A stretch of 64,000 nucleotides of DNA from Wickerhamiella versatilis (Eukaryota). Below the pieces are notes generated by a model, which was not told the origin of the DNA, searched no databases, and saw only the letters and a program-made list of their open reading frames with translations. The position numbers and the translations under genes were made by a program. The stretch is taken from assembly GCA_030867685.1 (NCBI GenBank), contig JAQOWU010000003.1, positions 186,001-250,000 of the forward strand, written 5' to 3'. Within the stretch, counting starts at the first letter, position 1; each line of letters begins with the position of its first letter. Positions 41,031 to 58,020 of the stretch are shown piece by piece.

Positions 41031-42458
41031 ATGGACTCACAAGAAATCGTACAGCTCTCTGCTATAGAATTAAGCCAGAAGATCCATAAGCGTCAAGTAA
41101 GCTGCGTCGAGGTGATGGCAGCTTATCTGAAGCAAATCAAACACTTCAACCCCACGGTTAATGCAATAGTGGGGATGCTAGATGACAAAGTTCTGCTTGA
41201 AGAGGCTGAAAAGGCTGACATTGAACTTGCATCGGGTCATTCCCGTGGCTGGCTCCATGGATTCCCTATGGCTGTGAAAGACAAAGCAAACATTGTGAGA
41301 GGCCTCGTGGGAACGTCAGGACTGACGGTAAATAAAGGAAAAGTCGGAACTAGTGATTCCATTTTTGTACACAGAATCCGACAGCAAGGCGCTATTTTTA
41401 TTGGACGAACCAATATGCCCGAACTCGCACTGGGATCACATAGCTATAACAAGGTATACGGAACAACATGCAACGCCTTTAATCCCAAGTTAGCCGGTGG
41501 TGGTAGCTCAGGGGGTGCTGCAGTCGCCCTCGCTCTACGAATGTTGCCCGTGGCAGATGGGAGTGATACTATGGGTTCCCTGCGTAATCCAGCGGCATGG
41601 AACAATGTCTATGGTTTCCGTCCCACTGTAGGTCTAATCCCAGCATCAGGCTCGAATGATCTTTTCTTCAGCCCACTATCTACTGATGGCCCAATGGCTA
41701 GTAATATCGAGGATTTAAGCCGCCTCTTGACCACCATGGCAGGTTATGATTCTAGCTGCCCTCTGTCTTTTGATTATGAACATTCTGATAATGAATTTTT
41801 TGCGCAGGAAACTCCAAAAGTTGCCTGGCTCGGAGACCTTGATGGGCATCTCGCGATGGATCCGGATTTGTTGAATGAGTCCTGCCAGGCTTGTCACAAG
41901 CTCCAATCAGCCAACGTCGCTTCAGTGGTGGATCTCAGTATTGATTTCGATTTGGATACGTTATGGGATGCCTGGTGTACGATTAGGTCCTGGGCAATAT
42001 CAAATGGATTAAATGCGTTGTCTTCCGACCAGCAAGCTCAATTGAATGCTCAGGCAAAGTATGAGCTTGATTCCTCAGAGGGCCTCAGTGCTAAAGACAT
42101 ATATTGGGCTGAAACCGTTCGGAGTAGCTGGTACCGTAAACTCCTTGAATACTTCTATAAATTTGACTTTGTGGTTCTGCCCTCCACCCAAACCTGGCCA
42201 TTTCCCAAGGAGTGGACTTGGCCGACGTCGATAAACGGAAGGGCAATGGACACTTACCACCGATGGATGGAGGTGACACTCTATGCATCATTTGCTGGTC
42301 TTCCAGCAATTAGTGTCCCGGTAGGTTTTGGTGCCAATGGGTTGGCATTTGGCCTGCAGGTCATAGCGCCAAGAAAACAGGACGAAAGGCTGCTCTCGTT
42401 CGTAAAACTAATGGAGCCATTATACTTAGACTCTCGCAGGGCCTCGGTTTCACTTTAA
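41031..42458 (+). CDS. Amidase-signature family amidase, proteobacterial-like
   Basis: AVKD (Lys), GGSSGGAAVALA, DGSDTMGSLRNPAAWNN.YGFRP (Ser-cisSer-Lys triad), MDTYHRWMEV. Confidence 0.9.
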   Translation: MDSQEIVQLSAIELSQKIHKRQVSCVEVMAAYLKQIKHFNPTVNAIVGMLDDKVLLEEAEKADIELASGHSRGWLHGFPMAVKDKANIVRGLVGTSGLTVNKGKVGTSDSIFVHRIRQQGAIFIGRTNMPELALGSHSYNKVYGTTCNAFNPKLAGGGSSGGAAVALALRMLPVADGSDTMGSLRNPAAWNNVYGFRPTVGLIPASGSNDLFFSPLSTDGPMASNIEDLSRLLTTMAGYDSSCPLSFDYEHSDNEFFAQETPKVAWLGDLDGHLAMDPDLLNESCQACHKLQSANVASVVDLSIDFDLDTLWDAWCTIRSWAISNGLNALSSDQQAQLNAQAKYELDSSEGLSAKDIYWAETVRSSWYRKLLEYFYKFDFVVLPSTQTWPFPKEWTWPTSINGRAMDTYHRWMEVTLYASFAGLPAISVPVGFGANGLAFGLQVIAPRKQDERLLSFVKLMEPLYLDSRRASVSL

Positions 42459-42829: not shown

Positions 42830-44293
42830 ATGACTAGGGAAGAATTGCCTTTTGGGTGGGATAAGGTGGCTGATGTCGTTGTTGTGGGCTATGGATTCGC
42901 AGGAGCGTCTGCTGCCATTGCTGCCTCGGAACGTGACGCAACCGTATTGCTAATTGAGAAGGCACCAGAGAAATATAAAGGTGGTAATAGCAGGGTCTCT
43001 GCAAATATTCTCATGTGGGTCAACAATGTCGAAAAAGCAGAGACCCATTTCAAGGCTATGGCTGGGCCGTTCATGGATGGGATCTCAGATAAGATGTTAA
43101 GAAATTGGGCCGTAGGAATGCATGATAATCGGGCCTGGTTGAAACATCTGGGAATGAACCCCAAACCCCTAAATTGGGTAGAGTTCCCTGAACTCCCTGG
43201 CAGCGACTGTGTACAGCCCCTCCTGAATGGGAAGGTCATTGGCGAGGCCAAGCTATGGAATGTTATGGAGTCTGCTGTTTCGTTAAGACCTATTCGCATT
43301 TCATATGAAACGGCCGCGACCGAGTTAATCATGGTGAATGGCGAATGCATTGGCCTGTGTGCCAAGCATGACGGAAGGGAAATGAAGATTAAGGCGAACA
43401 GGGGAGTAGTTCTAGCCTGCGGTGGGTTTGAGAATAACCCAGTGATGACCCGGCAATTCGTCAATTGTATGTCGGATATTTATCCCCTAGGCACGCCTTT
43501 TAACACCGGTGACGGAATTCGCATGTGCCAAAAGATCGGAGCAGACCTGTGGCACATGGCAAACGTTTCAGGGCCGATACTTGCATTTAAACTTCGAAAT
43601 CTTTCGACTGCTATGTGGCTGAATTTTCCACACGAAAATAGCTATATTTTTGTGGGCCCAGATGGAAAGCGTTTCTGTAAAGAGGGCCCACCCTGCATAG
43701 TGAGTGATCGCCATGGGAAGATCAATTATCACGGCCAGTGGATTCAGCAGCAATTTCCTAATCGTATCTATCTGATTTTTGATGAAAACTTTCGGAGGGC
43801 TGGCTCGTTAGGCCAGACAACAAGTAGTTGGGAACATCACAATGATAACAATTACATGTGGAGTGACGACAACACAGAAGAGATCAGGAAAGGCTGGATC
43901 AAGAAATCTTCCTCACTTCATGACCTGGCGAACTTGATAGCCGTGGATCCTGAGGGCCTGGTCTCAACTGTTGAACGGTACAACATTGATGCAGGTAAGC
44001 ATGAAGATACTGAGTGGGGACGGAACAAGGACAGAGTTTGCCCAATCCAGCGTCCACCTTACTACGCTATGGAGCTCACTCCGGCATATGTAAATACCCA
44101 GGGTGGTCCAAGACGCAATCATTTGGCCCAGGTGGTGACTCCTGAAAGCAAGCCTATTCCCCGGCTGTACTCAGCGGGAGAACTTGGGTCGATTTATGGA
44201 TATCTCTACCAAGCTGGTGGAAATATTGGTGAATGCTTTGCCTTTGGCAGAATCGCAGGCACACAAGCAGCTGCAGAGAAACCGGTCGGTTAG
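42830..44293 (+). CDS. FAD_binding_2 flavoprotein (fumarate reductase / 3-ketosteroid dehydrogenase superfamily), bacterial-like
   Basis: DVVVVGYGFAGASAA, GGNSRVS, VVLACGGFENN, NTGDGI, G.RF..E, NTQGGPRRN, IPRLYSAGELGS, GGNIGEC..FGRIAG. Confidence 0.85.
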   Translation: MTREELPFGWDKVADVVVVGYGFAGASAAIAASERDATVLLIEKAPEKYKGGNSRVSANILMWVNNVEKAETHFKAMAGPFMDGISDKMLRNWAVGMHDNRAWLKHLGMNPKPLNWVEFPELPGSDCVQPLLNGKVIGEAKLWNVMESAVSLRPIRISYETAATELIMVNGECIGLCAKHDGREMKIKANRGVVLACGGFENNPVMTRQFVNCMSDIYPLGTPFNTGDGIRMCQKIGADLWHMANVSGPILAFKLRNLSTAMWLNFPHENSYIFVGPDGKRFCKEGPPCIVSDRHGKINYHGQWIQQQFPNRIYLIFDENFRRAGSLGQTTSSWEHHNDNNYMWSDDNTEEIRKGWIKKSSSLHDLANLIAVDPEGLVSTVERYNIDAGKHEDTEWGRNKDRVCPIQRPPYYAMELTPAYVNTQGGPRRNHLAQVVTPESKPIPRLYSAGELGSIYGYLYQAGGNIGECFAFGRIAGTQAAAEKPVG

Positions 44294-44557
44294 GTGAAGT
44301 CAGAATCTCAACATGTGTATATATAGCTAATGAATTAACGAAGCATACAGTCGCTAAATAGCATTATCTCCCACTCTCTAAGCAATCACTATTCTGTAGT
44401 CATAAGGAGGTTTTTCCCTGTCCTAATTAATGGCTATCTTGTTTAAGCTTCTCAGTATTTCTATAAAAGCAGTTATCTGGGTGCACAGTCAGGTTTCATA
44501 TAATCGCACCATAAACCGAGGAAATTTGCCGCTATCCTCGAGCCTACCCCGCAAAAT

Positions 44558-46708
44558 ATGGCAGGTGCGAATGGATATAGGATCATGAACTGCATGCAAT
44601 GCCGCAAAAGAAAGACCAGGTGTGATCGGAAGATACCTTGCGGGTCCTGCAGAGTGCTCGGGAAAGCATCCGAATGTGTGCCAATGACCCGATCTGTGGT
44701 AGCTGATACCAGTGATACTCATAACGAAAATTCTCCTGTTCAGTCTACGAATCCAAACACTGTTCCTGTCGAGCCTGAGACATCATCTGATGCCGGTCAC
44801 GCTCGTCTGAATCATATCGAGACTTTACTGCTTGGTGCACTGAATGAGGTCCAGATTCTTACACGTAGGCATAACCAGCAGGATGAATTGAATGAGATGG
44901 AATCACATGTGGACTCTAAACGACAGCGTACTGGTGATAGAAGTGGCGATGTTGATACCACTTTAGATAGGTCCAATCTGCTCTCAAAGGTAGAGCACAC
45001 CCTGATGGGGTTTACTTCCGAAGATTTTGAATCTCGGAAGAATCCCCCTAGTACGAATAATGGTGCTGAAATAGCATGCGTTGGTCCCGTGAATTCATCA
45101 GTCGACATGGTAATAGGCCTATTACAACTGATATCGGGTCAGCGGGCCTGTATCCTAGTAAATTACTACTTTGAATCAATCGATTGGTTTGCAAGAGTAC
45201 TAAGTCCAACCACTGGCCGAGACAACTGCCTCAGAATTGCCCGCCTGTCACCTCGTGAAATAGTTGAAAGCTTTTCCCTTCCCCAAGCATGTTGCTATCT
45301 TGCTATTCTGGGTCTCTCATTATACTTTGCATCTAACAGTCTTCTTTCAGAGATAAGCATCAGTTTCACAGATGCTCAATCCATATCAGAACGCCTTATA
45401 GCAGGCTGCGAGGAGATCCTCTGGAAACGGGATTTTGACAGCTCCCAGGACTTAGAGTTCCTGTCCTGTACGATTATAACGAGACTGTATCAGTATCGCC
45501 ATAAAAAGACCGGTGTTGCGGACTGGGCTTTATCAGGGGCAATGGTTAAAGTGGCGCAAAGTCTGGGATGTCACAGGATCGACGCATTGAAGCCGGGTGA
45601 AAGCCTGTGCCCACCATGGTCCAGCTGTATTCAGCGCGAGGTGGGTCGAAGAATATATTGGAGCTTGATTTGGGATGACTGGTCACATTCCACGGTCTCT
45701 GGTGTTTACGCCATCCACCCCAGCCAGACGTTCACGAGACCGCCTGAAAACATTTGCATCGCTGATGACGCCGAAGTCGTCCATAAAGACATCAGTGTAT
45801 ATACCACTTCCACTTATACCGTTTTCTGGATAAAATATGTTGAGGTGTGCCGCCAGATAACTGATTTGAGCTCTATGGTTGGTGGCAGCCTGGACGTGGA
45901 TCAGATCAAGCTGTTTGGTACTGCTTTGGACGAAATTCATAGCTCCATACCAGACTCGTTGAAATATAATGCCACAGAAGAGGACTTGGTTTGCCAGGAC
46001 GGTGGCAGAGCGCGGGTCATGGAAAGGTGCATGCTCGAAATTATGTACCAAAACCGGCTGCTTCGGCTACACCGAGACCATCAAATCCAGGGTTCGTACC
46101 AGCCAGCCTGGTACTTTGCCAAATCTGTGTCCATAAATGCGGCCATGAGAATCGTTCAAATCGTATCCAGATTTAGCGACGACTATCCTGAGCTATTAAA
46201 GTACTATTTGGTTAATTACTATGTCCTTGGCGCGGCAATAACATTGATAACGGAGCTCTGTTGCAAACGCTGGGAAACCACCAACGAGTTACAAGCCTTT
46301 CGAGACTATGTGGTGATAGCCAAACAGCTTTTGGGACGGACCCGGGACAGCTCGTATGTCGCCAGGGTATCTGAAAACGTACTTCATGAGTTGATTGCTG
46401 CCGAGGATTTGGTTCGTGGTGCCTTTATGGCAGAGGATGGCGAGGGTAAATTCCACGAGCTGTCACTAAATCCAGAAAATCGCCAGCTGGCATTACTATT
46501 CAGAGGTGTACTTAAGAACGTATACTTGGAACAAATAAAAGGCTTTGGTAAAGAAGGACAGTATACCCCTGGGAGTAGCAAATCTGGTGGTATCCTGAAT
46601 GCAAGCACCAGTAACCCACCACCCCTTAACCAGTATGGAGCCCAGGATCCATTTACTGCCGATATTATGGAGACTATAGATTCTATAATAGGCGCAGATT
46701 ATGGCTAG
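44558..46708 (+). CDS. Zn2Cys6 transcription factor with fungal TF domain
   Basis: CMQCRKRKTRCDRKIPCGSCRVLGKASEC; AQSLGCHR....REVGRRIYWSL...DW middle-homology region. Confidence 0.9.
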   Translation: MAGANGYRIMNCMQCRKRKTRCDRKIPCGSCRVLGKASECVPMTRSVVADTSDTHNENSPVQSTNPNTVPVEPETSSDAGHARLNHIETLLLGALNEVQILTRRHNQQDELNEMESHVDSKRQRTGDRSGDVDTTLDRSNLLSKVEHTLMGFTSEDFESRKNPPSTNNGAEIACVGPVNSSVDMVIGLLQLISGQRACILVNYYFESIDWFARVLSPTTGRDNCLRIARLSPREIVESFSLPQACCYLAILGLSLYFASNSLLSEISISFTDAQSISERLIAGCEEILWKRDFDSSQDLEFLSCTIITRLYQYRHKKTGVADWALSGAMVKVAQSLGCHRIDALKPGESLCPPWSSCIQREVGRRIYWSLIWDDWSHSTVSGVYAIHPSQTFTRPPENICIADDAEVVHKDISVYTTSTYTVFWIKYVEVCRQITDLSSMVGGSLDVDQIKLFGTALDEIHSSIPDSLKYNATEEDLVCQDGGRARVMERCMLEIMYQNRLLRLHRDHQIQGSYQPAWYFAKSVSINAAMRIVQIVSRFSDDYPELLKYYLVNYYVLGAAITLITELCCKRWETTNELQAFRDYVVIAKQLLGRTRDSSYVARVSENVLHELIAAEDLVRGAFMAEDGEGKFHELSLNPENRQLALLFRGVLKNVYLEQIKGFGKEGQYTPGSSKSGGILNASTSNPPPLNQYGAQDPFTADIMETIDSIIGADYG

Positions 46709-46752
46709 CACCATTTCTGGGTTATAATTTTGTGCATACTTATTTATTCGAA

Positions 46753-46818
46753 GCCCCGGCGAAATGCCGCGGGGGCCCCGGCCTGTCAAAAAAATTATAT
46801 AATAGGACTGTATATATA
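46753..46818 (+). promoter_or_regulatory. GC-rich element and TATA box upstream of the phenolic acid decarboxylase
   Basis: GCCCCGGC at 46753 and 46775, CGG-N7-CCG at 46757-46769, TATATATA at 46811. Confidence 0.5.
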
Positions 46819-46861
46819 CGGCACGCCCGTGCTCAGCTCAGCGAGCTTGTCGCCATTTAAA

Positions 46862-47398
46862 ATGTCAGAATTTAAAACAGATGAGAATTTTGATTCCACC
46901 AAGCCCGAGGAGCTGGGATTCTTCGTGGGGAAACATATGATTTACACCTACGATAATGGATGGCAATATGAAGTATACATCAAGAACCCTACGACAATTG
47001 ACTACCGTATTCATAGCGGAATCGTTGGTGGAAGGTGGGTCCGTGACCAGACAGTGCATCTGGTAGCGCTTGCCAAAGATATATGCAAGCTGTCCTGGGA
47101 CGAGCCGACGGGTACAGCAGTCTCGTTAGCATTCAACTTTACCACCAATAAGACCCATGGCACGATATTCTTCCCTCAGTGGATAAAGCAGGATCCTAAA
47201 AAGACTGTGTGCTACCAAAACGACCACATTCCTCTCATGCTCAAATACCGTGCTGAGGGACCCACCTACCCGAAGTTTGTGATTGACGAGTTCTCAACCC
47301 TCACTTTCATTGAAGACTGTGGCGAGAACAACGAGGAGGTCATCAACCGTGGTCCCGAGTCACTTGACAAAGAGTATACAACCAGACGCAACGTGTAA
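46862..47398 (+). CDS. padC: Cofactor-free phenolic acid (hydroxycinnamate) decarboxylase, PadC family
   Basis: GKHMIYTYDNGWQYE.YIKN..TIDYRIHSG.VGGRWV, SWDEPTGT.VSL, HG.IFFP.W, KTVCYQNDHI..M..YR..GPTYP; ATG at 46862. Confidence 0.94.
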   Translation: MSEFKTDENFDSTKPEELGFFVGKHMIYTYDNGWQYEVYIKNPTTIDYRIHSGIVGGRWVRDQTVHLVALAKDICKLSWDEPTGTAVSLAFNFTTNKTHGTIFFPQWIKQDPKKTVCYQNDHIPLMLKYRAEGPTYPKFVIDEFSTLTFIEDCGENNEEVINRGPESLDKEYTTRRNV

Positions 47399-47519
47399 TG
47401 TGCATCATTAACAAGCATCATACGTATGTATATATAGGAGGACCAGCCCTAAATACAAAATTAATGCTCACTCTAATATGCCACCATGCTATCCATATTT
47501 ACATATACACGGGCAAATT

Positions 47520-48671
47520 TTAGATGTCCAGTCCCAAAACTCGCGATGCGTTACCACCAAGAATATCGCTTTTCTTTTTCTCGTCAGCATCCAAGCACTT
47601 GCCGATGACCGACTTGTTGCTTTCCACACTTAGCCATTTGCCTGACTTATCACCAAGGGGAGGAAAGAAGGGATGGTCAGTGCCAAACATAACTCTGTCG
47701 GTGCTACCTGCGGCTTCAATGGCTGCCTTCAGCCCAGGAGTGCCGTAAATGACGGCATCCAGGTAAATATTCTCATGTAGCACCTCCCATATACTGCGCT
47801 GGGGGCCTTGCTTTTCACCGCCATTGGCAATAAATTCGCGCTCGTGGGCGACACAGGATTCTATTCGACCAGCTAGGAACGGCAACGTACCACCCGAATG
47901 GGCGAGCAGGAATTGGATTTGGGGATGACGGTCAAAGACACCTGAGAGATACATTCGTGAAACAGCGATTGTTGTTTCCAGAGGGAAGCCCAGTGCCAGC
48001 GGGAGGACATGGCCGAACCGCGCAACCACCTCAGAACCTCCATAAGCGATATCAGGAAGGCCATAATGAGGATGCAAAAATACCATGGTATTGGTCGCAG
48101 CCAGTGCCTCATATACTGGATCGAGGGCCGGGTCATCAAGACCGCCACCCAGTCCCGTGGTACCCATAATAATGCCTTTGATATGGTCTAAGGATTGCAG
48201 ACGATATATCTCAGCAGCAATGTCAGATGCCGGGGCTGAGAGAGGTAAACAGCCGAACGCATACAGCTTGAGAGGCCCATCCTTCTGAATATCAGGATTA
48301 TTATTATTTTCACGGCACTCTGAGTCAAGGTCATTGTTGATTTTTTGGGCTGACTTTAGCGCCTCAGCAGGATCCAGGAAGTCCAGCCAGGGGTTTGCCA
48401 GCGATACCACTGAGCAATGGATACCATGAAGCGCCATGAAGCGTCGTTTTTCCTCGAACGAAGAGTAGCTCTTATCTATGGGCCTTCCCCGCACGGACAG
48501 AGGCCGCGACGGATCGTCATCAGATGCTAAAATGATCAGTCTGGGGTCTTCTGAAGGATCAGGGGAATTGTAAACGTATGGCACTGTGGAGCGAGACGAC
48601 AGAAGGTCCATATATGAGGGGGGATAGATGTGCGTGTGGATATCCACCACGGTCATAGGGGGAGATGACAT
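47520..48671 (-). CDS. Uracil-5-carboxylate (isoorotate) decarboxylase, amidohydrolase_2 family
   Basis: VVDIHTHIYPPSY, SVVSLANPWLDF, GT.GLG.GLDDP, FLHPHYGLP, GHVLPLALGFP.ETTIAV.RMY, AHSGGTLPFLAGRIESC, MFGTDHPFFPP match fungal IDCases. Confidence 0.88.
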   Translation of the reverse strand: MSSPPMTVVDIHTHIYPPSYMDLLSSRSTVPYVYNSPDPSEDPRLIILASDDDPSRPLSVRGRPIDKSYSSFEEKRRFMALHGIHCSVVSLANPWLDFLDPAEALKSAQKINNDLDSECRENNNNPDIQKDGPLKLYAFGCLPLSAPASDIAAEIYRLQSLDHIKGIIMGTTGLGGGLDDPALDPVYEALAATNTMVFLHPHYGLPDIAYGGSEVVARFGHVLPLALGFPLETTIAVSRMYLSGVFDRHPQIQFLLAHSGGTLPFLAGRIESCVAHEREFIANGGEKQGPQRSIWEVLHENIYLDAVIYGTPGLKAAIEAAGSTDRVMFGTDHPFFPPLGDKSGKWLSVESNKSVIGKCLDADEKKKSDILGGNASRVLGLDI

Positions 48672-48810
48672 TCTGTTGGTGTTGCAGAGGGGCCAGCGGT
48701 TACTCTAGAAACCAGCGGTATGTACAAATTGCAGACTAGGTAGCGATGTATAAGTTCGGTACCACCAGCTTGCTGATAACGTTTCTCAGACCTTGGTTTA
48801 TAATCATCAA

Positions 48811-48868
48811 TCCGCGGAGCGGGGCACATTATCTGTCGTTTGAATCGGGGTTAAGCGGCGGGGTTAAG
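48811..48868. promoter_or_regulatory. Divergent-promoter elements: TCCGCGGA palindrome and CGGGGTTAAG direct repeat
   Basis: tccgcgga 48811-48818; cggggttaag 48846-48855 and 48859-48868. Confidence 0.6.
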
Positions 48869-49046
48869 TTTAGTATGAGACAACTCTCAGAGAAACATTG
48901 TACGGTGGATATTAATGCATAGTAGGTGAAATAGATATAATAGCAACAAAAAATCGTTATCAATCAAAAGGTCATGAGAACTCAAAAGGATAGGATGACT
49001 ATTCGACTATTTATAATCATATCAGCACCCCCAGTCTCTCATCCTC

Positions 49047-50036
49047 ATGATAGATATTTCGCAAGCACCGCTTTCTATTGTCGACCTAAGCGCATTTAAA
49101 TCTCCTGATGCAAGTGTACGGGCGGCTGAGGCGACCAAAATGAGAGATGCGTGCATCAAGTCTGGCTTTTTCTACATAAAAAATCATGACTTCGATCCAG
49201 AGGTTATCACCGCTGTTCGCAAGCAGTCCAAGGAGTTTTTCGACTTGCCTCTCAAAGATAAGGACGAGATCGACATCCGTTACTCTAACTGTTATCGAGG
49301 CTACGAGCCGTTGCGCGGTCAACGGCTTGAGGCAGGTGCTCCACCAGATGTCAAGGAGGGCTTTTATATGGGTCGGCATAAGGAATTGGACGATCCAGAG
49401 ATTAAGGGAAGATTCAATCAGGGACCAAACCAGTGGCCCTCGAAACTCCCTAACTTCAAGCCTACGTTGGAAACCTATTATAAGCACTGCACTGCAATCA
49501 TGGAAACCCTCATGAATGGACTTGCTCTTTCATTGGGACTCTCAGAGAAGTATTTCGTTGAAAATGGTTTTCTGAAGGATCCAATAGGTACATTGCGTCT
49601 ACTGCATTACCCACCACATCCTGTGGACGCCCAGCCAGATGAGAAGGGCTGTGGCGCCCACACAGACTTCGGGGCGGTGACCATATTGTTTCAGGATGAT
49701 TCCGGTGGGCTTCAGGTTCTCTCTGCAGATGGCAAGCAATGGATAGATGCTCCACCTATAGAAGGTACGTTTGTCGTCAACATGGGCGATCTAATAAGTC
49801 GCTGGACGAACGAAAAATACCATTCAAACGTTCACCGAGTCATAAACAAGTCCGGGCGTGACCGCTATTCTATCCCCTTTTTTTTCGAGGGCGGTTTGGA
49901 TTGCCTTGTTGAATGCCTGCCGACGTGCCTCGATGAGGGTGAGACGCCAAAGTATCCTCCCATCACAGTGGAAGATAACCTTAGAAACTGCTTCAACCGC
50001 ACCTATGGAGGTGTGAGGGAGGAAGTTGCAGCATGA
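49047..50036 (+). CDS. 2-oxoglutarate/Fe(II) dioxygenase, IPNS / thymine-7-hydroxylase superfamily
   Basis: GFFYIKNH, RGYEP, PDVKE, GPNQWP, LRLLHYPP, HTD..H facial triad (GAHTDFG, SNVHRV), RYSIPFF. Confidence 0.88.
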   Translation: MIDISQAPLSIVDLSAFKSPDASVRAAEATKMRDACIKSGFFYIKNHDFDPEVITAVRKQSKEFFDLPLKDKDEIDIRYSNCYRGYEPLRGQRLEAGAPPDVKEGFYMGRHKELDDPEIKGRFNQGPNQWPSKLPNFKPTLETYYKHCTAIMETLMNGLALSLGLSEKYFVENGFLKDPIGTLRLLHYPPHPVDAQPDEKGCGAHTDFGAVTILFQDDSGGLQVLSADGKQWIDAPPIEGTFVVNMGDLISRWTNEKYHSNVHRVINKSGRDRYSIPFFFEGGLDCLVECLPTCLDEGETPKYPPITVEDNLRNCFNRTYGGVREEVAA

Positions 50037-50160
50037 TAATAAGGCTTTGCTACTTCTAATATACGTTTCGTTTCAGAATAGCTTGTCTTTTTATTAAAGA
50101 GAGTAGAGGTTAAATAATTTTATCGAGTCATTACGCAATATAAAAAGTTCTCGCCTGGAA

Positions 50161-52029
50161 TCATGGTGTCTCAGTCGAGCTGTTAATCGACCGTGTAGAT
50201 TCATGGCTTCTCTGGCTGAGCTTGCCGGAATCAAGACCGTTATCGCGAACCTCTTCGTCAAAGAACTCAACGTCCACATTCTTCTCAAGCCAAATTTTGC
50301 TAAACGGTCGACCTTGAACCTCTACAGGTATCCCTTCAGGGGGGGATATCCAGCAGAACAGCATATATAACAAGGATGACAAAATGAAACCGACAAAGTA
50401 ATTAAGACGGTACAGGTATTTTGCACCAACGGGTACAGAAAGGCTCTGTCCCACAAATCCCGGCATATTGGGTACCAACGCTAACAAATATGCCGCGAAT
50501 CCTCGCCAGTTACATCCGAAAGAGGTCTTGTACATGTAGGGGGAGCTCTTGGAACCATTATAAAGATTTTTGAGATCAAGTTTCCCATGGCGAAGCCATG
50601 TATAATCCGTCAGAACCACGCCAGAAATACACGACAAAAAAACAGCATAGGCAGATAGATAAGTAGTGAACTGTGAAGAAGCTGAAAAGAAATGCCAAGG
50701 ACAAATACATAGAGCCAATGCGGCGCAAAGGAATGCACCTCGCCGAATGTTCATAAATTTTGGCAGGAAGGATGTCATATCAGTGCCAGCACTTAGCGAA
50801 TTCGCACATACGTTGGTGCCGAGTTGGCAGATAAGAAGTCCTAAAGCAATGAGAAACCCTCCACCTCGGCAGCCAGCGGTACCTGTGTTCACCCACTTAT
50901 CAAGTACCTTAAGGGGATCCCATGCCCATGTTATATCCTTTCCATACGTGGACTGTGCAGTTGAAGCTATGATGATACCCACAAGGGACGTAACCCCGAA
51001 TCCAAATGGGATGGTAATAAGTTGCGACCAGGTTGAATCAGAGGGTTTTGTGGAAAGACGAGAAAAATCTGGTGCATTCAGAACGAGCGTTGCATAGTTT
51101 GCCATTGCATTCATTACCGCATCGACGAAGGCCCAGCCTTCGTACCAACCTTCATCATGCGGATCACTCTTGTCAAACTTTATGTCGTTCTTGGGATGGT
51201 TAATCAGGTCTCCACCACCATGGTTCCGCACAAGCGCCCATATGAGAAAGCCAAATATCGTAAAAGGGGCAACGATTGCCTTCAATGTGAAAAGGTGACG
51301 AATCTGGTGAGGAGGGAACCACATGGCTGGCAAGTGGATAACCCACGCAATGAAGAAAGAAACAAACTCAAAAACAGACGTTCCACTTAAGTTTTTCTTA
51401 TCCCCCATTCGTTTTCCCACACGAGGATCGAAAATGCCTTTTAGCATTATCTGAACGCACTCACCTCCTATCCAGGTTTGAGAGCTAAACCAAATGATTG
51501 CCATGACCACGCGATTTATAACCGGCCACAACGATCCATAAACCCCAAATGATGCACGGCAAGACACCGGAAAACTAATATGATAGTATGCACCCACTCG
51601 GGACGCCCAGGTGATCAGGCACGCAGAAATGCCGTAACCAATCCAAATTCCAAGCCATGCTTCCCACCAAGTGAGCCCAGACTGTATACTACTACCTGCA
51701 ATCTGAAACGTGTTGACATTGATGGCATCAGCGAGCCACATCATCACGAAGTTGTACCATCCCCATGTGCGGCGAGCCTTTTCGACCGGCTTCAGGTCGA
51801 AATTATATAGGAAAAGCTGACTGAGTTTCAGACCTTCAGTATCACTTGTCTCCAGCCATCGAAGCCACTGGCGGCCACTTTTCCAGTTGTGCGGAATGTG
51901 GCCCTGCGGCTGGAGGCCTTTCATATCAAGATCAGAATGGCCATATGATTCTACCTGCCCTTCATCCAGGGAATTCCGGGACGACCTGGAGTATTGATCG
52001 CCGCCTTTTTTGTCCAGGTGCTCATTCAT
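50161..52029 (-). CDS. NCS1 nucleobase permease (Fur4/Dal4 type)
   Basis: LYNFDLKPVE..RRTWGWYNF..W.AD..NVNT.QI, YHISFPV..RASFG, NAPDFSR, N..ANSLSAGTDMT..LP...NIRRG, PW.F. Confidence 0.92.
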   Translation of the reverse strand: MNEHLDKKGGDQYSRSSRNSLDEGQVESYGHSDLDMKGLQPQGHIPHNWKSGRQWLRWLETSDTEGLKLSQLFLYNFDLKPVEKARRTWGWYNFVMMWLADAINVNTFQIAGSSIQSGLTWWEAWLGIWIGYGISACLITWASRVGAYYHISFPVSCRASFGVYGSLWPVINRVVMAIIWFSSQTWIGGECVQIMLKGIFDPRVGKRMGDKKNLSGTSVFEFVSFFIAWVIHLPAMWFPPHQIRHLFTLKAIVAPFTIFGFLIWALVRNHGGGDLINHPKNDIKFDKSDPHDEGWYEGWAFVDAVMNAMANYATLVLNAPDFSRLSTKPSDSTWSQLITIPFGFGVTSLVGIIIASTAQSTYGKDITWAWDPLKVLDKWVNTGTAGCRGGGFLIALGLLICQLGTNVCANSLSAGTDMTSFLPKFMNIRRGAFLCAALALCICPWHFFSASSQFTTYLSAYAVFLSCISGVVLTDYTWLRHGKLDLKNLYNGSKSSPYMYKTSFGCNWRGFAAYLLALVPNMPGFVGQSLSVPVGAKYLYRLNYFVGFILSSLLYMLFCWISPPEGIPVEVQGRPFSKIWLEKNVDVEFFDEEVRDNGLDSGKLSQRSHESTRSINSSTETP

Positions 52030-52452
52030 CTCAAAATACCACAGATAGTAAGAGAGTGATGAAGATTACCAGTGAATTCAGTACTTTCTGACATATCTCC
52101 CTCCCACTGCAGGCTTAGTTGCATAAAGCTGACAAATTTAAAGCGTTTGGTCTGCGCAGTATCTTGTCGTAAAGATTTCCTGATATATAGGTAACAGTAC
52201 TCGGAAAAAGCTTTGTTACCTTTGACTTTGCGACATCTATATCCCCTTTAGTTCAAACCACCATACCATCGCGGAAATTGCTTATCAAGGTCGACTAGTT
52301 GATTTGTAAATATCTGACAAATAGTAATGCTATTGCCGCGGAGATTACTTGCTCTCGTGATAAGTGAAGATCATATAGTATGCTAAAACCTAAAGTGGGC
52401 TATCTTGCATTGTCCAGCCAGTCTCAGGTAATGAAGTGATGATTGCTAGAAT

Positions 52453-53349
52453 TTATAGCTTAGATTCTAATTTTTTTTTCAGGCCAGCTCTCTGATACGA
52501 CATTTCTGCCAAGGAAGACCAATCCTTGTCTTCGTACCCAGTGGCCTTGGCCTGGATGAGACTATCACGCACGACTCCAGCCAGTGGCAGTGGCACTCGT
52601 GCATTATCACCAGCCTCTAAAGCTAGCCTAACGTCCTTAAGCCCTAGAGGAAGCTTGAAGCCGACAGGTTCGTACTCGCGCCTTCGGATGAACTGTGAAT
52701 AGCCCCTATAAACTCCGCACGGAAACAAGGCCTCCAAATAGAGGTCAATCATGTCATTGCGGTCGATGCCGTGTGCAGTAGCTAGGGCAGTTGCTTCTGC
52801 CATAGCCTCGATAGCCGAGGCAATCATCATGTTTCCTGAGATCTTCACCACATTGGCTTGAAACGGCATATTTCCCACATGCCATACTTTCACACTTACC
52901 GCTGAAAGCAAAGGTCGCAGGTTTTCCACATGTTCGGGCTTTCCACCCGCAACCAGATGTAATGCACCGGCTGCTGCGGCATCGGGACGCCCAAATACTG
53001 GACAGGCCACATATTCTACCCCGTGCGCGGCGTGCATTTTTTCGAGGTGTTTCGCATAGTTGACAGAGACGGTGGAGAAGTTTACGTGCAGCAAGGGCGT
53101 CCGGGCAGACTTAAGCCAGCCAGATTCAATGAGAGTACCCTGAATGGCATCGTCATGGGCCAGCATTGAAAACACTATGCCATACTTAGTCGCGTCTTCT
53201 GGTCTAGAGGCAATTTGTGCACCTACTTTCGCGAGTTCAGCCACTGGTTCGGAAAATCTGTCCCACACCACGACCTCGTGGCCAGCCTTTAGAAGGTTTC
53301 GGACGATTCCGTCACCCATTATTCCAATGCCAATAAACCCGACTTTCAT
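52453..53349 (-). CDS. beta-hydroxyacid dehydrogenase (YfjR / 3-hydroxyisobutyrate dehydrogenase family), bacterial-like, C-terminal SKL
   Basis: MKVGFIGIGIMG, HVNFSTVS, PVFGRPDAAAAG, ANVVKISGN (catalytic Lys), GFKLPLGLKDVRLA, DWS; ends KKKLESKL. Confidence 0.88.
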   Translation of the reverse strand: MKVGFIGIGIMGDGIVRNLLKAGHEVVVWDRFSEPVAELAKVGAQIASRPEDATKYGIVFSMLAHDDAIQGTLIESGWLKSARTPLLHVNFSTVSVNYAKHLEKMHAAHGVEYVACPVFGRPDAAAAGALHLVAGGKPEHVENLRPLLSAVSVKVWHVGNMPFQANVVKISGNMMIASAIEAMAEATALATAHGIDRNDMIDLYLEALFPCGVYRGYSQFIRRREYEPVGFKLPLGLKDVRLALEAGDNARVPLPLAGVVRDSLIQAKATGYEDKDWSSLAEMSYQRAGLKKKLESKL

Positions 53350-53452
53350 TTCAATCACCTAGCGAAACCAGAGCAGAGGATCACAAGTCACAAATTACAA
53401 ACTACGAATCACAATTGTTATCTATGTGCCTTAGTTAATTGATTATATAGTG

Positions 53453-54967
53453 CTAACCGTATCGAACCCCACCATTGAACCAGTCATCAAAGCCGGTGTT
53501 GGTGGAGACAATTACATTCCGCTTGATACTATATGCCTTGAGGGCATCCCAGCCATTTTCGACTCCGTAGCCACTATCCCCGTAGCCACTCCATATAGAG
53601 CGAGGATCATTTTTATGATGGTCATTAATCCATATCATTCCAGCCTTAATGCGAGTACCCATACGCGTAGCCCTTGCCACTTCTCTTGTCCATATTGAGG
53701 CACCCAGGGCATATGGCGAGTCGTTGGCTAACTGGAGAGCTTCTTCTTCGGTTTCAAACGGAGTGACGGAGACCACCGGCCCGAATACTTCGCTCCGGAA
53801 CAGGTCCATGTCCCGTGTGACATCGGCGAAAATTGTAGGCGTAACGTAATTGCCTTTGGACAGCTCTTCATCAGGCAGCTCAGGTTTATGCCCGCCTGCC
53901 ACGAGCCGAGCTCCTGCTGCTAGGGCATCCGAAATGAACTGCTCACACCGCTGCTGCGATGCACGAGAAATCACTGGACCGACATCAGTGGTCAGATCCG
54001 ATGGCCTTCCTAATCGCAGAGCCTCGGTTCTTGCCGCAAACACCTTAAGGAACTTTTCGTATATGCTACGCTGCACAATAAACCGACTGGCCGAGACACA
54101 TGTTTGGCCCGATGCCACAAAGGCAGCAAACACAGCCCCAGCAGCCGCCTCATATATATTGCTATCCTCAAAAATCACTACTGGTGTCTTCCCACCTAAC
54201 TCGAGCGTGCAGGGGACAATCCGATGGGCTGCTGCTGCTGCAACCCGTCGGCCAGTGGCGGTACCGCCGGTCAGATCGATACGTCGAACACTTTTATTCT
54301 GGCAGAGTGCTGCACCGGTCTCTGCCTCGCCAGTAACGACATTGATCACACCAGCAGGTAAGCCAGCCTCACTGGCCCAGGCCGCAATCAACAATGCTGT
54401 GCACGGAGCAAGCTCTGACGGTTTGATGACAACAGTATTGCCAGCAGCCAGTGCCGCGGCCATCTTTTTCGTGAGGATGAGAATTGGATGGTTCCAGGGC
54501 GTCAGCAATGCACAGACTCCGTAAGGCTGCCAGGTGGTTGTTGCTGAGAACCCACCGCGAAGCGAGTTCGACTCGCCCTCGAGGCCAGGAGCGATTCCAG
54601 CAAAATACTCTAACCACTCGGGTATGCGCGACATCTGTGCCCTCATTTCACGTATTGGTCTGCCAGTTATTGTGGACTCGTACCCAGCCAGCTCGCCGAT
54701 TCGCTGGGCAATAAGAGCAGCGAGTCGTCGCAAATGCCGACCTCGGTCGATCGGATCCATTTTCGACCATGTTTCGAATGCCTTTGATGCCGATGAAATT
54801 GCCTTATCGACGTCGGCTTCCCCTGCAATTGCCATGTGGCCGAGCAGCTTGCCCGTTGCAGCATATGGAAGGTCCCGCTTTGCACTACCTTCAACTTCGT
54901 GAAATTTTCCACCGTAAAAAATGTGTTTGCCATCATAAGTCTGCAAAAGTAGGTTTCCAAGAGACAT
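53453..54967 (-). CDS. NAD(P)-dependent aldehyde dehydrogenase, bacterial-like
   Basis: TPWNHP, KPSELAP, TGGTATG, LELGGK (Glu), SGQTCV (Cys), EVFGPV, SGYG.ENG; first ATG at 54967. Confidence 0.9.
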   Translation of the reverse strand: MSLGNLLLQTYDGKHIFYGGKFHEVEGSAKRDLPYAATGKLLGHMAIAGEADVDKAISSASKAFETWSKMDPIDRGRHLRRLAALIAQRIGELAGYESTITGRPIREMRAQMSRIPEWLEYFAGIAPGLEGESNSLRGGFSATTTWQPYGVCALLTPWNHPILILTKKMAAALAAGNTVVIKPSELAPCTALLIAAWASEAGLPAGVINVVTGEAETGAALCQNKSVRRIDLTGGTATGRRVAAAAAHRIVPCTLELGGKTPVVIFEDSNIYEAAAGAVFAAFVASGQTCVSASRFIVQRSIYEKFLKVFAARTEALRLGRPSDLTTDVGPVISRASQQRCEQFISDALAAGARLVAGGHKPELPDEELSKGNYVTPTIFADVTRDMDLFRSEVFGPVVSVTPFETEEEALQLANDSPYALGASIWTREVARATRMGTRIKAGMIWINDHHKNDPRSIWSGYGDSGYGVENGWDALKAYSIKRNVIVSTNTGFDDWFNGGVRYG

Positions 54968-55033
54968 ACTGGTAGAGTTCAGTCCGTCGCAGATAGCCAA
55001 TTACCTGTTATCGCCTAAGGTAAGGGTTAGTAG

Positions 55034-55043
55034 CTTAACCCCG
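55034..55043 (-). promoter_or_regulatory. CGGGGTTAAG element upstream of the ALDH gene, identical to the repeat in the IDCase/oxygenase promoter
   Basis: + strand cttaaccccg. Confidence 0.55.
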
Positions 55044-55822
55044 TCACCCTAATTTACGGCATATTGAGCAAGATTTGTCCGGTATATAGCGTCTAATCTT
55101 CGTTCCTGTAACCTATACATCAGCAAATCGTTACAGCTTGGAAAATGGGGGTCTGTACTAACCACTAGGCTGGTTGATTGTATGTATATCACATTGTCAG
55201 GTTAAAACATGAGTGGAAAGTCTAATGTATGCTAAAATGTAGGCAAATGGAACTTAATTGTGGTCTGGTTTGGGCTAGCTGGTGCAGAAAAAAGGAAGTG
55301 AATTTTATGGTACCAATTTAGGTCTTACAATGCACAGTTCTAGCATAATACACGTCGAGCGTTTTTTGCAAATAGTAGCTCTTCCACCTTTCTAACTGAC
55401 GCCTGATGCAATCGTAAACAGGCCAAATTATGATGAACCTCAACTGTCGTGTATTTCGCGAACAGGTAATAATAGGGTCAGGTACATGTAGATCGGTCAA
55501 GCTGGGGATGCAAACCCAACTCAAATCGGTAGTTTGTCTAGTCTCAATCAAAAACGTCGGTTATTTTTCTGAAATTTCAAAAATGGTGTTAAGATATATG
55601 CAATTCAGATTGATTTGAGCAGACTGCAATCGGAGGTTAATGCGTAAGATGATTACAAATACGCGTTTCATCGTTTCATCGAGCGAGGGAGAGAGATTTT
55701 ACTCGAATTTTGATTTCCAACTGTGAGTGTGGATTATAACAACTAATTTGTTTTGAAATTACTCGACTACGTCTGATATTGAGTCTGTCATAATGAGAAT
55801 TCTATTCACACAAGATATACTA

Positions 55823-55840
55823 CCCCGCATTAATTAATAA
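55823..55840. promoter_or_regulatory. Possible Mig1/CreA glucose-repression site upstream of GH51
   Basis: CCCCGC (reverse complement GCGGGG) flanked by AT-rich attaattaataa. Confidence 0.35.
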
Positions 55841-55891
55841 TCACATAAGGCTACATAACTTTGATGCATAATTTTTTTCTTAGAATATACA

Positions 55892-57838
55892 ATGTTGTTC
55901 TCAATATTTCTGGCTTCAGCAGCTGCCCTGGTAATCAGCGACAGCAGGACTAATGACTCTTCGTCTATCCTAAATGGTATCGTGTTCGAAGACATAAATC
56001 ACAGCGGCGATGGCGGTATATACGGAGAGTTGCTTGCTAACCGAGCATTCCAAGGTGACGGACCATCAACCCACAACTATACTGGCGTTAATGCTAAGCT
56101 TCAGCTCACAAACGAATCCTTATCAGATGCCTTGCCTTATTCGTTGCTTGTTAACGGTGACGGCTTCTACAACGAAGGCTACTGGGGAATCAAGGTTTCC
56201 CCCGAGGAGTATACTGCCAGGTTCTACTACAAGGGCAATGCAAGCCTAGGCGTGGAGCTAAGGAGTCTGAATGACAACACAACATTTGCTTCAGCGAAAC
56301 CAACAGCCGTGACTGAGGATGACGGAATATATATTGCCGAGTCAAATGGCTTTCGACTGTACAAAGCGAAATTAAAACCTTCAAAGAGCGCTTCGGATTT
56401 GAGTAATGCGTTGTTTATTTACGGATCAGGCCATTACAGTTTGATATCCCTATTTGGACCTACATATAACGACAGGCCCAATGGGTTACGAAAAGATCTC
56501 GCTGAAGCCGTGGCTGGTTTTGGCCCGCACTTCCTTCGATTTCCAGGTGCAAATAATCTTGAAGGTGAGGGTGGTCCGGAGACGAGATGGAAGTGGAATG
56601 AAACGATTGGGCCACTCATTAACCGTCCAGGACGCCAGGGTGACTGGGGCTATCCAACAACGGATGGACTTGGGCTGCACGAATACTTTGATTGGATAGA
56701 GGATATGAATTTAACGGCGATTCTCGGCGTATGGGCAGGCTTTACCCTCGAGCCCTCGGTGGTTCCCGAGGATGAGCTGCAGCCATACATCGATGATGTT
56801 CTTCACGAGCTTGAGTACATATTGGGTGACAGTTCAACAGAGTACGGGTCATTGAGAGTAAAAAATGGTCGAACATCGCCGTGGCAGCTAGAGTATGTTG
56901 AAATTGGTAACGAGGATTTCTTTGATTTGAATTATACTTATGGCTACCGTTTCCCGGCTTTCAACAAAGCAATAAAGGAAAAGTACCCCCACATCACAAC
57001 AATAGCGACTACACAATTCAACATATCGAGTTTTCCCAACGAAACGACCTGGTGGGACCAGCACTACTATCAGACACCGCAATGGTTTGTGGATCAGTTC
57101 GACGCATATGATAACTATCCCCGCAACGCAACCAAAATTTTCGTTGGTGAGTACGGTGCCGCCTTTAGAGATGGGCATAACGGCGATATGGGGCCTGGCG
57201 GACGTTACTTCAACCCCACTGTCTATGGCGCGGTGTCCGAGGCAGTCTACATGGCAGGCCTCGAGAGGAATTCCGATCAAGTCAAGGCGGCCTGCTATGC
57301 ACCAATAATCGAGAATGTCAACCACTATAACAATCTTAACCAGCTTCATCCCAAGCTTGTTGACTTTGATGCCGGAACAGTTAACGTCACGCCATCATAT
57401 CAGGTGCAGAAACTTTGGTCTACCACTCAGGGCGATCGCATACTTACATTAGAAAATGCAACATTCGGGCCTTTGTATTACGTTGCGAACGTTGCTGATG
57501 ATCAGCTGCACGTGAAGATTTCAAACCCCACAAATCAAACTGCTGAGTTTAGCGCAATCGTCGACGTGTCGGGATTTGACAGTGGCTCCGCATCGGCAGA
57601 GGGCATCTCTTCTAGCAATCCAGAAGCCATCAGGGTTGATATCAAGCCATGGAACGTCGACTATACCAGCAAAAAGCTTAGACTGACCATGAAGCCGTAT
57701 TCCGCGGGCGTTATAACTGTTGAAAAGAGAACAGGGGATACTCCCATCGCAAACGTAGGTTCAAGCTGTAAATTTCAAATTTCTATTACAATTTTGATGG
57801 TAGCAGCTATCGTGGATGGATTGCTCCTGATAATTTAG
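55892..57838 (+). CDS. Secreted GH51 alpha-L-arabinofuranosidase with C-terminal hydrophobic (GPI-like) tail
   Basis: FEDINHSGDGGIYGEL..NRAFQ, NEGYWGI, NGLRKDL, RFPGANNLEG, VEIGNED (acid/base), VGEY (nucleophile), GLERNSD. Confidence 0.92.
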   Translation: MLFSIFLASAAALVISDSRTNDSSSILNGIVFEDINHSGDGGIYGELLANRAFQGDGPSTHNYTGVNAKLQLTNESLSDALPYSLLVNGDGFYNEGYWGIKVSPEEYTARFYYKGNASLGVELRSLNDNTTFASAKPTAVTEDDGIYIAESNGFRLYKAKLKPSKSASDLSNALFIYGSGHYSLISLFGPTYNDRPNGLRKDLAEAVAGFGPHFLRFPGANNLEGEGGPETRWKWNETIGPLINRPGRQGDWGYPTTDGLGLHEYFDWIEDMNLTAILGVWAGFTLEPSVVPEDELQPYIDDVLHELEYILGDSSTEYGSLRVKNGRTSPWQLEYVEIGNEDFFDLNYTYGYRFPAFNKAIKEKYPHITTIATTQFNISSFPNETTWWDQHYYQTPQWFVDQFDAYDNYPRNATKIFVGEYGAAFRDGHNGDMGPGGRYFNPTVYGAVSEAVYMAGLERNSDQVKAACYAPIIENVNHYNNLNQLHPKLVDFDAGTVNVTPSYQVQKLWSTTQGDRILTLENATFGPLYYVANVADDQLHVKISNPTNQTAEFSAIVDVSGFDSGSASAEGISSSNPEAIRVDIKPWNVDYTSKKLRLTMKPYSAGVITVEKRTGDTPIANVGSSCKFQISITILMVAAIVDGLLLII

Positions 57839-58020
57839 CAATGTAACTTTAACTTTAAGTACTTCAGGGCAAGCGGGGGTACAGCAGGTGGGATACAGAG
57901 CCACACAACCAGGCTAACCACGACAAATTGACGTCAGGAGTTTCACCTAAATTGCATCGGTTGGAAGGGCATGCAGAAGAATGCATATAATTCCTCGATT
58001 CATGGTGAGTAATCAGAACA

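Follow-up and report, generated by a model that had tools for sequence, protein, structure and literature searches.

The window analysed here is a 64-kb stretch of the genome of the yeast Wickerhamiella versatilis (contig JAQOWU010000003.1, positions 186,001 to 250,000), which contains a pair of divergent genes, one encoding the fungal-type IDCase (uracil-5-carboxylate decarboxylase; 47520-48671, minus strand) and the other a 2-oxoglutarate (2OG)/Fe(II) oxygenase (49047-50036, plus strand), separated by a spacer of 375 bp. Beyond the oxygenase gene are located the genes for an NCS1 nucleobase-type permease (50161-52029, minus strand; assigned from the gene map and a profile match), a HIBADH-like beta-hydroxyacid dehydrogenase (52453-53349, minus strand), an aldehyde dehydrogenase (ALDH; 53453-54967, minus strand) and, after a spacer of 924 bp, an arabinofuranosidase (55892-57838, plus strand; from the gene map). 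On the other side of IDCase is a lineage-restricted gene for a Zn2Cys6 transcription factor (44558-46708, plus strand). A G-rich word of 10 nt, CGGGGTTAAG, is present twice within the IDCase/oxygenase spacer and once upstream of ALDH. Based on this word and some other CGG-containing motifs, the initial annotation proposed that the promoters of a "pyrimidine cluster" of fungal and bacterial-derived genes are tied together in one regulon, possibly driven by the Zn2Cys6 factor. The start of the Zn2Cys6 open reading frame (ORF) at 44558 was confirmed, and every motif position used in that proposal was correct, that is, CGGGGTTAAG in three copies, CCGCGGAG at 48812 and 52336, and the GATA sites.

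Copies 1 and 2 of CGGGGTTAAG are on the plus strand at 48846-48855 and 48859-48868, copy 2 being 13 nt past copy 1 in the middle of the 375-bp spacer. Copy 1, which follows a T, is separated from the start codons of IDCase and the oxygenase gene by 175 and 201 nt, respectively, and copy 2 follows a G, forming GCGGGG at 48858-48863. As a whole, the tandem pair spans the distances of 175-197 nt (IDCase) and 179-201 nt (oxygenase) from these start codons, between a TATAAA (48797-48802) facing IDCase and TATAAT-type boxes (48936-48943 and 49012-49018) facing the oxygenase gene. Copy 3, on the minus strand at 55034-55043, is preceded by A, has the same orientation as ALDH and is located 67-76 nt 5' of the ATG of this gene (54967). 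The claimed match of 11/11 between the ALDH copy and copy 1 was reproduced, the common 11-mer being CGGGGTTAAGC. With respect to CGG triplets, the tandem pair forms both CGG-N10-CGG and CGG-N7-CGG direct repeats, and the ALDH copy has one CGG alone. Tandem Repeats Finder reported no repeat in the IDCase/oxygenase spacer. Since no Rfam family was matched between 44000 and 56000, the boxes lie outside any known RNA gene.

Other G-rich words are located in the neighbouring promoters. The palindrome TCCGCGGA at 48811-48818 (plus strand), a perfect everted CGG pair, overlaps the first CCGCGGAG at 48812-48819 and is adjoined by a GCGGGG at 48819-48824 (plus strand) inside GCGGGGCAC, a word that is also present at three of the fungal loci described below (L022, L025 and L036). 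The second CCGCGGAG is at 52336-52343 (plus strand), 307 nt 5' of the NCS1 ATG, and CCGCGGGGG at 46767-46775 (plus strand), in a G+C-rich stretch of the promoter of a phenolic acid decarboxylase gene, contains the only other intergenic CCGCGG of the window. Two TGCGGGGTAG boxes with AT-rich flanks are on the minus strand, one at 44544-44553, 5-14 nt before the Zn2Cys6 ATG, and one at 55820-55829, 63-72 nt before the arabinofuranosidase ATG. GATAAG sites were annotated upstream of NCS1, and two are indeed there, 78 nt apart (CTTATC at 52281-52286 and GATAAG at 52359-52364). The IDCase/oxygenase spacer contains three HGATAR sites (TGATAA at 48774, TTATCT at 48829 and TTATCA at 48957), none of which is GATAAG. 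Such sites are those of promoters under nitrogen regulation by a GATA factor (AreA/Gln3), where GATAAG as a rule is present at least twice within a short distance.

Metagenomes searched with the IDCase protein as query yielded 80 fungal loci (L001-L080) with 36-76% identity. At 26 of the 80 loci, a 2OG oxygenase gene is located head-to-head with IDCase, 400-1100 bp 5' of it, as in the window, and 23 promoters were left after removal of near-duplicates. The arrangement corresponds to the fungal thymidine-salvage pair of thymine 7-hydroxylase (T7H) and IDCase, with uc-7 (NCU06417) as the example from Neurospora crassa (PMC8550094, PMC4787775). The head-to-head partner at L002 is a true T7H (PDB 5c3p, E 2.6e-114), and the IDCase of the window (PDB 4hjw, E 3.8e-112) is 76% identical to the IDCase of L002 and orthologous to that of the salvage pair.

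The top word of the 23 fungal promoters is GATAAG, present in all 23 against 5.8 expected, the maximum for any 6-mer in 200 shuffles being 18. The second most enriched word is GCGGGG (16 of 23 promoters; 4.4 expected), with its extensions GCGGGGT in nine (1.2 expected) and GCGGGGTA in five (0.23 expected). Compared with the remainder of the same loci, the density per kb was 2.71 versus 0.32 for GATAAG and 1.60 versus 0.45 for GCGGGG. The two words are located close to each other: pairs of GCGGGG and GATAAG at most 20 nt apart number 13 in 14.4 kb of promoter DNA (8 of the 23 promoters), as against one in 306.7 kb of the same loci and none in another 67 kb of non-ORF DNA. A fixed layout, GATAA[G/C/A]-N2-4-GCGGGG, recurs in nine cases, and TA(A) often comes directly after it. 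When the set was extended to 48 non-redundant upstream regions, 41 of them contained GATAAG, 27 contained GCGGGG and 13 the tight composite, and only five tight composites were found in 505 kb elsewhere. Within this wider set, 34 of 42 GCGGGG sites are in the sense of IDCase. The distance between the box and the IDCase ATG is mostly 120-480 nt, and in the clade nearest to the window (L002, L005 and L007) the box reads GCGGAGGACGCCG. In many fungi, the bidirectional promoters of IDCase/T7H are characterized by this GATAAG-N2-4-GCGGGG(TA) module. No description of this module was found in titles, abstracts and some passages of the literature, and literature on GCGGGG together with GATAAG, on URC2/pyrimidine regulators and on Neurospora regulators from DNA affinity purification sequencing (DAP-seq) gave nothing usable. 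The module offers a handle on the regulation of thymidine salvage and on its regulator, and this by-product is possibly more useful than the finding that led to it.

The tandem CGGGGTTAAG pair is, in kind, an ordinary thing, a candidate cis-regulatory element of the IDCase/oxygenase bidirectional promoter. We tentatively hold it to be quite possible that this element is the lineage version of the (C)GCGGGG(T)(A) box, read by a zinc-finger protein encoded elsewhere and acting together with a GATA nitrogen factor. The pair is taken as a lineage variant because the GCGGGG core is conserved in fungal IDCase promoters; the G-rich box that many fungi have beside GATA sites 5' of IDCase would in this yeast lineage take the form of the tandem. 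The CGGGG core would be read by a protein whose gene is elsewhere in the genome and which would work with, or against, the GATA factor on both divergent genes. For this reading the neighbouring Zn2Cys6 gene is unnecessary. The single ALDH copy may pass the same input to the ALDH-HIBADH pair, and this is the weakest step of the proposed mechanism. The sequences themselves show where the words are, their enrichment and the conserved core, and from these the binding of a protein, the nature of the factor and a common regulation are inferred. In the window, GCGGGGCAC adjoins a GATA site (48819-48834) as it adjoins GATAAG at L022 and L025, and copy 2 with its left flank, TAAG-CG-GCGGGGT, resembles TAAG-CC-GCGGGGT of L027.

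The consensus of CreA/Mig1 is SYGGRG. A C2H2 factor of this type is the leading candidate for the reader of the box, because GCGGGG and GCGGAG fit SYGGRG and because the TGCGGGGTAG boxes have Mig1-like flanks and target genes. Hexamers of the SYGGRG type are present in copy 2 (GCGGGG at 48858), as GCGGAG at 48814, and at 48819, 44547, 46769 and 55823, and neither TCGGGG of copy 1 nor ACGGGG of the ALDH copy matches. Mig1 sites of budding yeasts consist of the GC box SYGGGG, preceded on the 5' side by AT-rich DNA, and genes for regulators and glycosidases are typical Mig1 targets. Like such sites, the two TGCGGGGTAG boxes are AT-flanked and precede a regulator gene and a glycosidase gene; unlike them, CGGGGTTAAG has its AT-rich part on the opposite side and two of its copies are without the S-Y start. 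Room is left for another, pathway-specific factor, because the fungal promoters are enriched for only two of the eight SYGGRG variants, GATAAG stands at a fixed spacing, and the copies with T or A before CGGGG misfit. Of the other readers considered, Reb1, whose site is TTACCCG, was rejected, as CGGGTAA is present in none of the 23 fungal promoters and the window copies read CGGGGTT, and a telomere-like (Tbf1) reading was also rejected.

Bidirectional control regions of similar design are known in Aspergillus nidulans: prnD-prnB has GATA (AreA) sites and paired CreA SYGGRG sites, and niiA-niaD has AreA sites and NirA sites of CTCCGHGG. The IDCase/oxygenase spacer is like these in being a short central control region for two divergent catabolic genes, with GATA sites near G/C-rich zinc-finger boxes that are paired, and in the fit of GCGGGG and GCGGAG to SYGGRG and of CCGCGGAG to the NirA consensus. 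It is unlike the Aspergillus promoters in that two of the three CGGGGTTAAG copies misfit SYGGRG and that the fungal set is enriched for GCGGGG and GTGGGG only. To our knowledge, a fixed GATAAG-N2-4-GCGGGG spacing is no described feature of either prnD-prnB or niiA-niaD.

Observations that weigh against reading the tandem as a form of the fungal box come from the comparison with the fungal set as well as from word statistics. Among the 80 loci, the exact CGGGGTTAAG was found at one only, 3.9 kb from the gene, and it was absent from all the related IDCase promoters; of the conservation expected in orthologous promoters, the GCGGGG core was thus retained (16/23) and the exact 10-mer was not. The TTAAG half of CGGGGTTAAG showed no enrichment in the fungal promoters (GTTAAG, 0.14 versus 0.20 per kb), and the tight GATAAG-GCGGGG composite is absent from the window. 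The boxes of the window are antisense to IDCase, unlike most of the fungal GCGGGG sites; in copies 1 and 3, CGGGG is preceded by T and A in place of the G of the conserved box, leaving SYGGRG unmatched; and the ALDH copy has the only TATA-like box of its promoter (TATATA, 55083-55088) 40-49 nt upstream of it. Among the eight SYGGRG variants, the 23 fungal promoters are enriched for GCGGGG (3.6-fold) and GTGGGG (2.0-fold) only, the other six being at 0.4- to 1.4-fold, and a factor more specific than CreA therefore fits better. In favour of the fungal-box reading, GCGGGG, taken as a prior hypothesis, is present in the window at five sites in 2.2 kb of cluster promoters versus two in 14.2 kb of other intergenic DNA (p=0.00077), although this p-value alone fails correction for the 1221 words ranked. 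In that ranking of 6-mers by cluster promoters, GCGGGG was 1st, TCCGCG 2nd, CCGCGG 3rd and CGGGGT 5th, and five of the nine intergenic CGGGGT sites of the window are in cluster promoters (p=0.0026).

Whole-window counts were made as exact word copies in comparison with shuffled sequence. The three copies of CGGGGTTAAG stand against 0.05 expected, a contrast that is inflated because the word was picked post hoc; none of 100 shuffles reached three, and no further exact copy is present in the 64 kb. Three or more occurrences in the window are reached by as many as 306 distinct 10-mers and 35 distinct 11-mers. When up to two mismatches were allowed, CGGGGTTAAG gave 35 matches versus 36.5 expected, and the sole match with one mismatch is within the NCS1 coding region. 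Because two of the three copies form one 13-nt tandem, the real question is how often a word is common to two spacers. A word of at least 11 nt was common to the 375-bp IDCase/oxygenase and the 924-bp ALDH/arabinofuranosidase spacers in 333 of 2000 dinucleotide shuffles (17%), and the frequency was 32% when the match could be with any other cluster spacer and 57% for any pair among five spacers. Moreover, the unrelated 10- and 11-mers GTATGCTAAAA, GGCTATCTTG and CTACCCCGCA connect other cluster spacers, the 10-mers two other pairs and the 11-mer one; the ease of such matches is illustrated by the 11-mer GTATGCTAAAA, which is present both at 52378-52388 upstream of NCS1 and at 55227-55237 in the ALDH/arabinofuranosidase spacer. 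In a fairer test, a 10-mer that is repeated in one of the five cluster promoters and present in another was obtained in 13 of 2000 shuffles.

These counts bear on the simplest alternative, in which the copies have no common function, a 13-nt microduplication having made the tandem and a chance 11-mer the ALDH copy, with the promoters regulated independently. The abundance of repeated 10-mers, the frequency of shared 11-mers in shuffled spacers, the differing flanks of the copies, the relaxed matches at the level of expectation and the odd placement of the ALDH copy all agree with it. Such an origin of all three copies is nevertheless unlikely, because repeat plus recurrence was so infrequent in the shuffles, the core is a word independently enriched in the 23 fungal IDCase promoters, and the pair is central and flanked by two TATA-like boxes. 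The statistical support for CGGGGTTAAG as a candidate cis element varies with the test applied and is moderate.

Another alternative, compatible with the fungal-box reading of the tandem, assigns the everted CGG pair CCGCGG (TCCGCGGA at 48811) to the local Zn2Cys6 factor and leaves CGGGGTTAAG to a different one. Nine CCGCGG are present in the window and all three intergenic ones are in cluster promoters, those of the decarboxylase, IDCase/oxygenase and NCS1 genes, which together with the other cluster promoters make up 2242 of 16484 intergenic bp (p=0.0025, in a post hoc test on three sites). Besides the high ranks of TCCGCG and CCGCGG among the 6-mers, the density of CCGCGGGG is raised 17-fold in the fungal promoters (4 versus 5 sites). 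TCCGCGGA has the site type of Pdr1/Pdr3 and NIT4, and CCGCGGAG corresponds, as its complement, to the NirA consensus CTCCGHGG. The presence of CCGCGGAG in both the divergent and the NCS1 promoters was correctly noted in the initial annotation, but its significance was not supported, as two copies compare with 0.76 expected and 17 of 100 shuffles reach two, a count at the level of chance. In addition, CCGCGG shows no enrichment across the 23 fungal promoters (0.35 versus 0.28 per kb) and is absent from the ALDH and HIBADH promoters and from the promoter of the factor gene itself. A role of CCGCGG as the local Zn2Cys6 site has, on balance, a low probability; if the nearby factor has any sites here, CCGCGG would be a better candidate for them than CGGGGTTAAG.

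The origin of the genes was examined by protein comparison. The relatives of ALDH are bacterial, with identities of up to 70-72% over the full length (Trinickia, Burkholderiaceae; L085, L087 and L132), and in Trinickia a HIBADH gene (70-72% identity) follows about 100 bp after ALDH, with gene order and orientation equal to those of the window. The bacterial derivation of both dehydrogenases, stated initially, was thereby upheld, and from this comparison the ALDH-HIBADH pair, with ALDH as its first and HIBADH as its second gene, is a bacterial operon of two genes that entered the yeast as a unit by transfer, which accounts for the short spacer of 103 bp between the two genes. The oxygenase has two close relatives (98% and 77%), followed, among the matches listed, only by proteobacterial proteins at 51-60% from Stutzerimonas, Cupriavidus, Pseudomonas and Komagataeibacter. 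Its identity to the T7H of L002 is 32%, and its match to PDB 5c3p has an E value of 4.6e-42 as against that of the L002 partner. Judging from the protein comparisons, it is of the bacterial type and not an orthologue of T7H. No second T7H-like ORF is present in the window, and the bacterial oxygenase appears to have displaced T7H at the conserved head-to-head position. A co-transfer of the oxygenase with ALDH-HIBADH was rejected, as the Trinickia homologues are only 36-41% identical and are not encoded near ALDH. For ALDH, HIBADH and the oxygenase, no equivalog score reached the NCBIfam cut-off, and none of the three was assigned a specific function by this database.

The window thus differs from the T7H/IDCase pair in its oxygenase, which is closer to proteobacterial oxygenases (55-60%) than to T7H, and also in its neighbours, as NCS1, HIBADH, ALDH and the Zn2Cys6 factor were found beside IDCase at none of the 80 fungal loci. 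Because these neighbours are absent there and the oxygenase is of the bacterial type, the name "pyrimidine cluster" is an assumption and was not supported: a pyrimidine pedigree is found only for IDCase and perhaps for NCS1. The recognition of the oxygenase and ALDH-HIBADH as bacterial acquisitions is, together with the fungal GATAAG-GCGGGG module, the most useful product of this analysis.

With respect to a regulon, no cis word is common to all the cluster promoters. Among six promoter regions, CGGGGTTAAG is present in two, GCGGGG in four and CCGCGG in three; the HIBADH spacer contains none of the three words, and the NCS1 spacer lacks CGGGGTTAAG and GCGGGG but has one CCGCGG (52336). The single regulon proposed at first is not borne out, since CGGGGTTAAG is absent from the NCS1, HIBADH and Zn2Cys6 promoters and the lone ALDH copy, located between the TATA-like box and the ATG, is compatible with chance; as judged from the sequence, the claim is unproven. 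That the ALDH copy is functional is somewhat unlikely, and if it is due to chance, the membership of the dehydrogenases in a pyrimidine cluster rests on adjacency alone. A regulatory domestication may be imagined, in which a bacterial oxygenase replaced T7H and, with the separately acquired ALDH-HIBADH, was wired into an ancient, hitherto undescribed fungal GATA plus GCGGGG circuit of thymine/pyrimidine salvage by gaining sense CGGGGTTAAG boxes, leading to a new chimeric catabolic regulon; taken as a whole, this scenario is quite improbable. If the boxes work, they would be an example of bacterial genes, here an oxygenase displacing T7H and a dehydrogenase operon, gaining eukaryotic control.

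The Zn2Cys6 factor has only three detectable relatives (76%, 39% and 31% identity) among 5.8 billion proteins. A Zn-cluster signature was found near IDCase at three of the 80 loci and was of a different type, and tblastn with the Zn2Cys6 protein gave no match at the 80 IDCase loci; the conserved core is located at loci without the factor, and the two are not conserved together. The factor gene is flanked by a gene for an FAD oxidoreductase (42830-44293, plus strand; from the gene map), weakly similar to the vinylphenol reductase VprA at a score below the cut-off, and by an intact bacterial-type gene for phenolic acid decarboxylase (46862-47398, plus strand; PF05870, E 2.5e-77), overlooked in the initial annotation, which lies between the Zn2Cys6 and IDCase genes. 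These flanking genes suggest that the factor belongs to a different module. The decarboxylase, FAD oxidoreductase and Zn2Cys6 genes may form a hydroxycinnamate module with its own regulator. The promoter of the decarboxylase gene (46740-46790) contains the G+C-rich stretch CCCCGG...CCGCGGGGGCCCCGG.

The AraR/XlnR site of Aspergillus is CGGNTAAW. A monomeric Zn2Cys6 site consisting of one CGG and an AT-rich tail is described for Pho7 of Schizosaccharomyces pombe (PMC6265462). Like these sites, CGGGGTTAAG has CGG followed by TTAA/TAA within a few bases in an asymmetric word of 10-12 nt, here in tandem; unlike them, its spacing fits neither consensus. Other features could also be taken to connect CGGGGTTAAG with the nearby factor: every copy starts with CGG, the tandem pair makes CGG-N10-CGG, the factor gene is 2 kb away with a G-box just before its own ATG, the exact word is confined to two spacers in the 64 kb, and it is oriented in the sense of both bacterial-derived transcription units. 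Binding of CGGGGTTAAG by the product of the gene at 44558, whether as a monomer or at CGG-N10-CGG, with joint activation of IDCase, oxygenase and ALDH-HIBADH, is very unlikely, however, in view of the presence of the core 5' of IDCase in fungi having no such neighbour, the scarcity of relatives of the factor, the hint of another job from its neighbours, the decarboxylase gene lying in between, the lack of CGGGGTTAAG in the NCS1 and HIBADH promoters, and the single CGG of the ALDH copy. These comparisons gave nothing that connects CGGGGTTAAG with the Zn2Cys6 gene.

Close relatives were represented by contigs of three runs (X1-X3) from two related organisms, collinear with 44000-58000, and their DNA differs from the window by 2% to 17% depending on the segment. 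Gaps in the X1 cover (48780-49046, 51949-52449 and 55209-55598) are outside this evidence. A 114-kb contig of a related genome, collinear with the cluster, has 93 other letters in place of 48780-48845, and its alignment resumes exactly at 48846, where copy 1 begins, a point in favour of the tandem as an element. The region of the ALDH box is covered by contigs of both related organisms. The divergence is uneven, being 16-17% in the Zn2Cys6 segment (44545-46506) versus 2-5% in the ALDH-HIBADH segment (52450-55208).

The top-enriched 7-mer of the six cluster promoters is TATAATC (48800, 49012 and other spacers), with five sites versus one elsewhere and presence in four of the six promoters (p=0.00025, uncorrected); it may be a TATA-box variant common to the cluster. 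The word RGCTATCTTGCA is present six to seven times in the window, mostly in intergenic DNA (52394-52433, 16382, 22046, 25696, 28995, 44434 and 45295). A 40-nt stretch containing it at 52394-52433 is missing from the collinear related contig and shows a very high summed depth with many different flanks in X2 and X3, suggestive of a short dispersed repeat or an insertion. Upstream of the FAD oxidoreductase gene is an amidase gene (41031-42458, plus strand; from the gene map), with a score of 578.6 bits against an NCBIfam cut-off of 465 for the bacterial PRK07486 amidase subfamily, and this gene may be another bacterial acquisition in the region. At a distance from the cluster, two overlapping ORFs on the plus strand, 15194-16126 and 16021-16668, the first with a partial MFS_1 domain, look like a frameshifted or split transporter gene.

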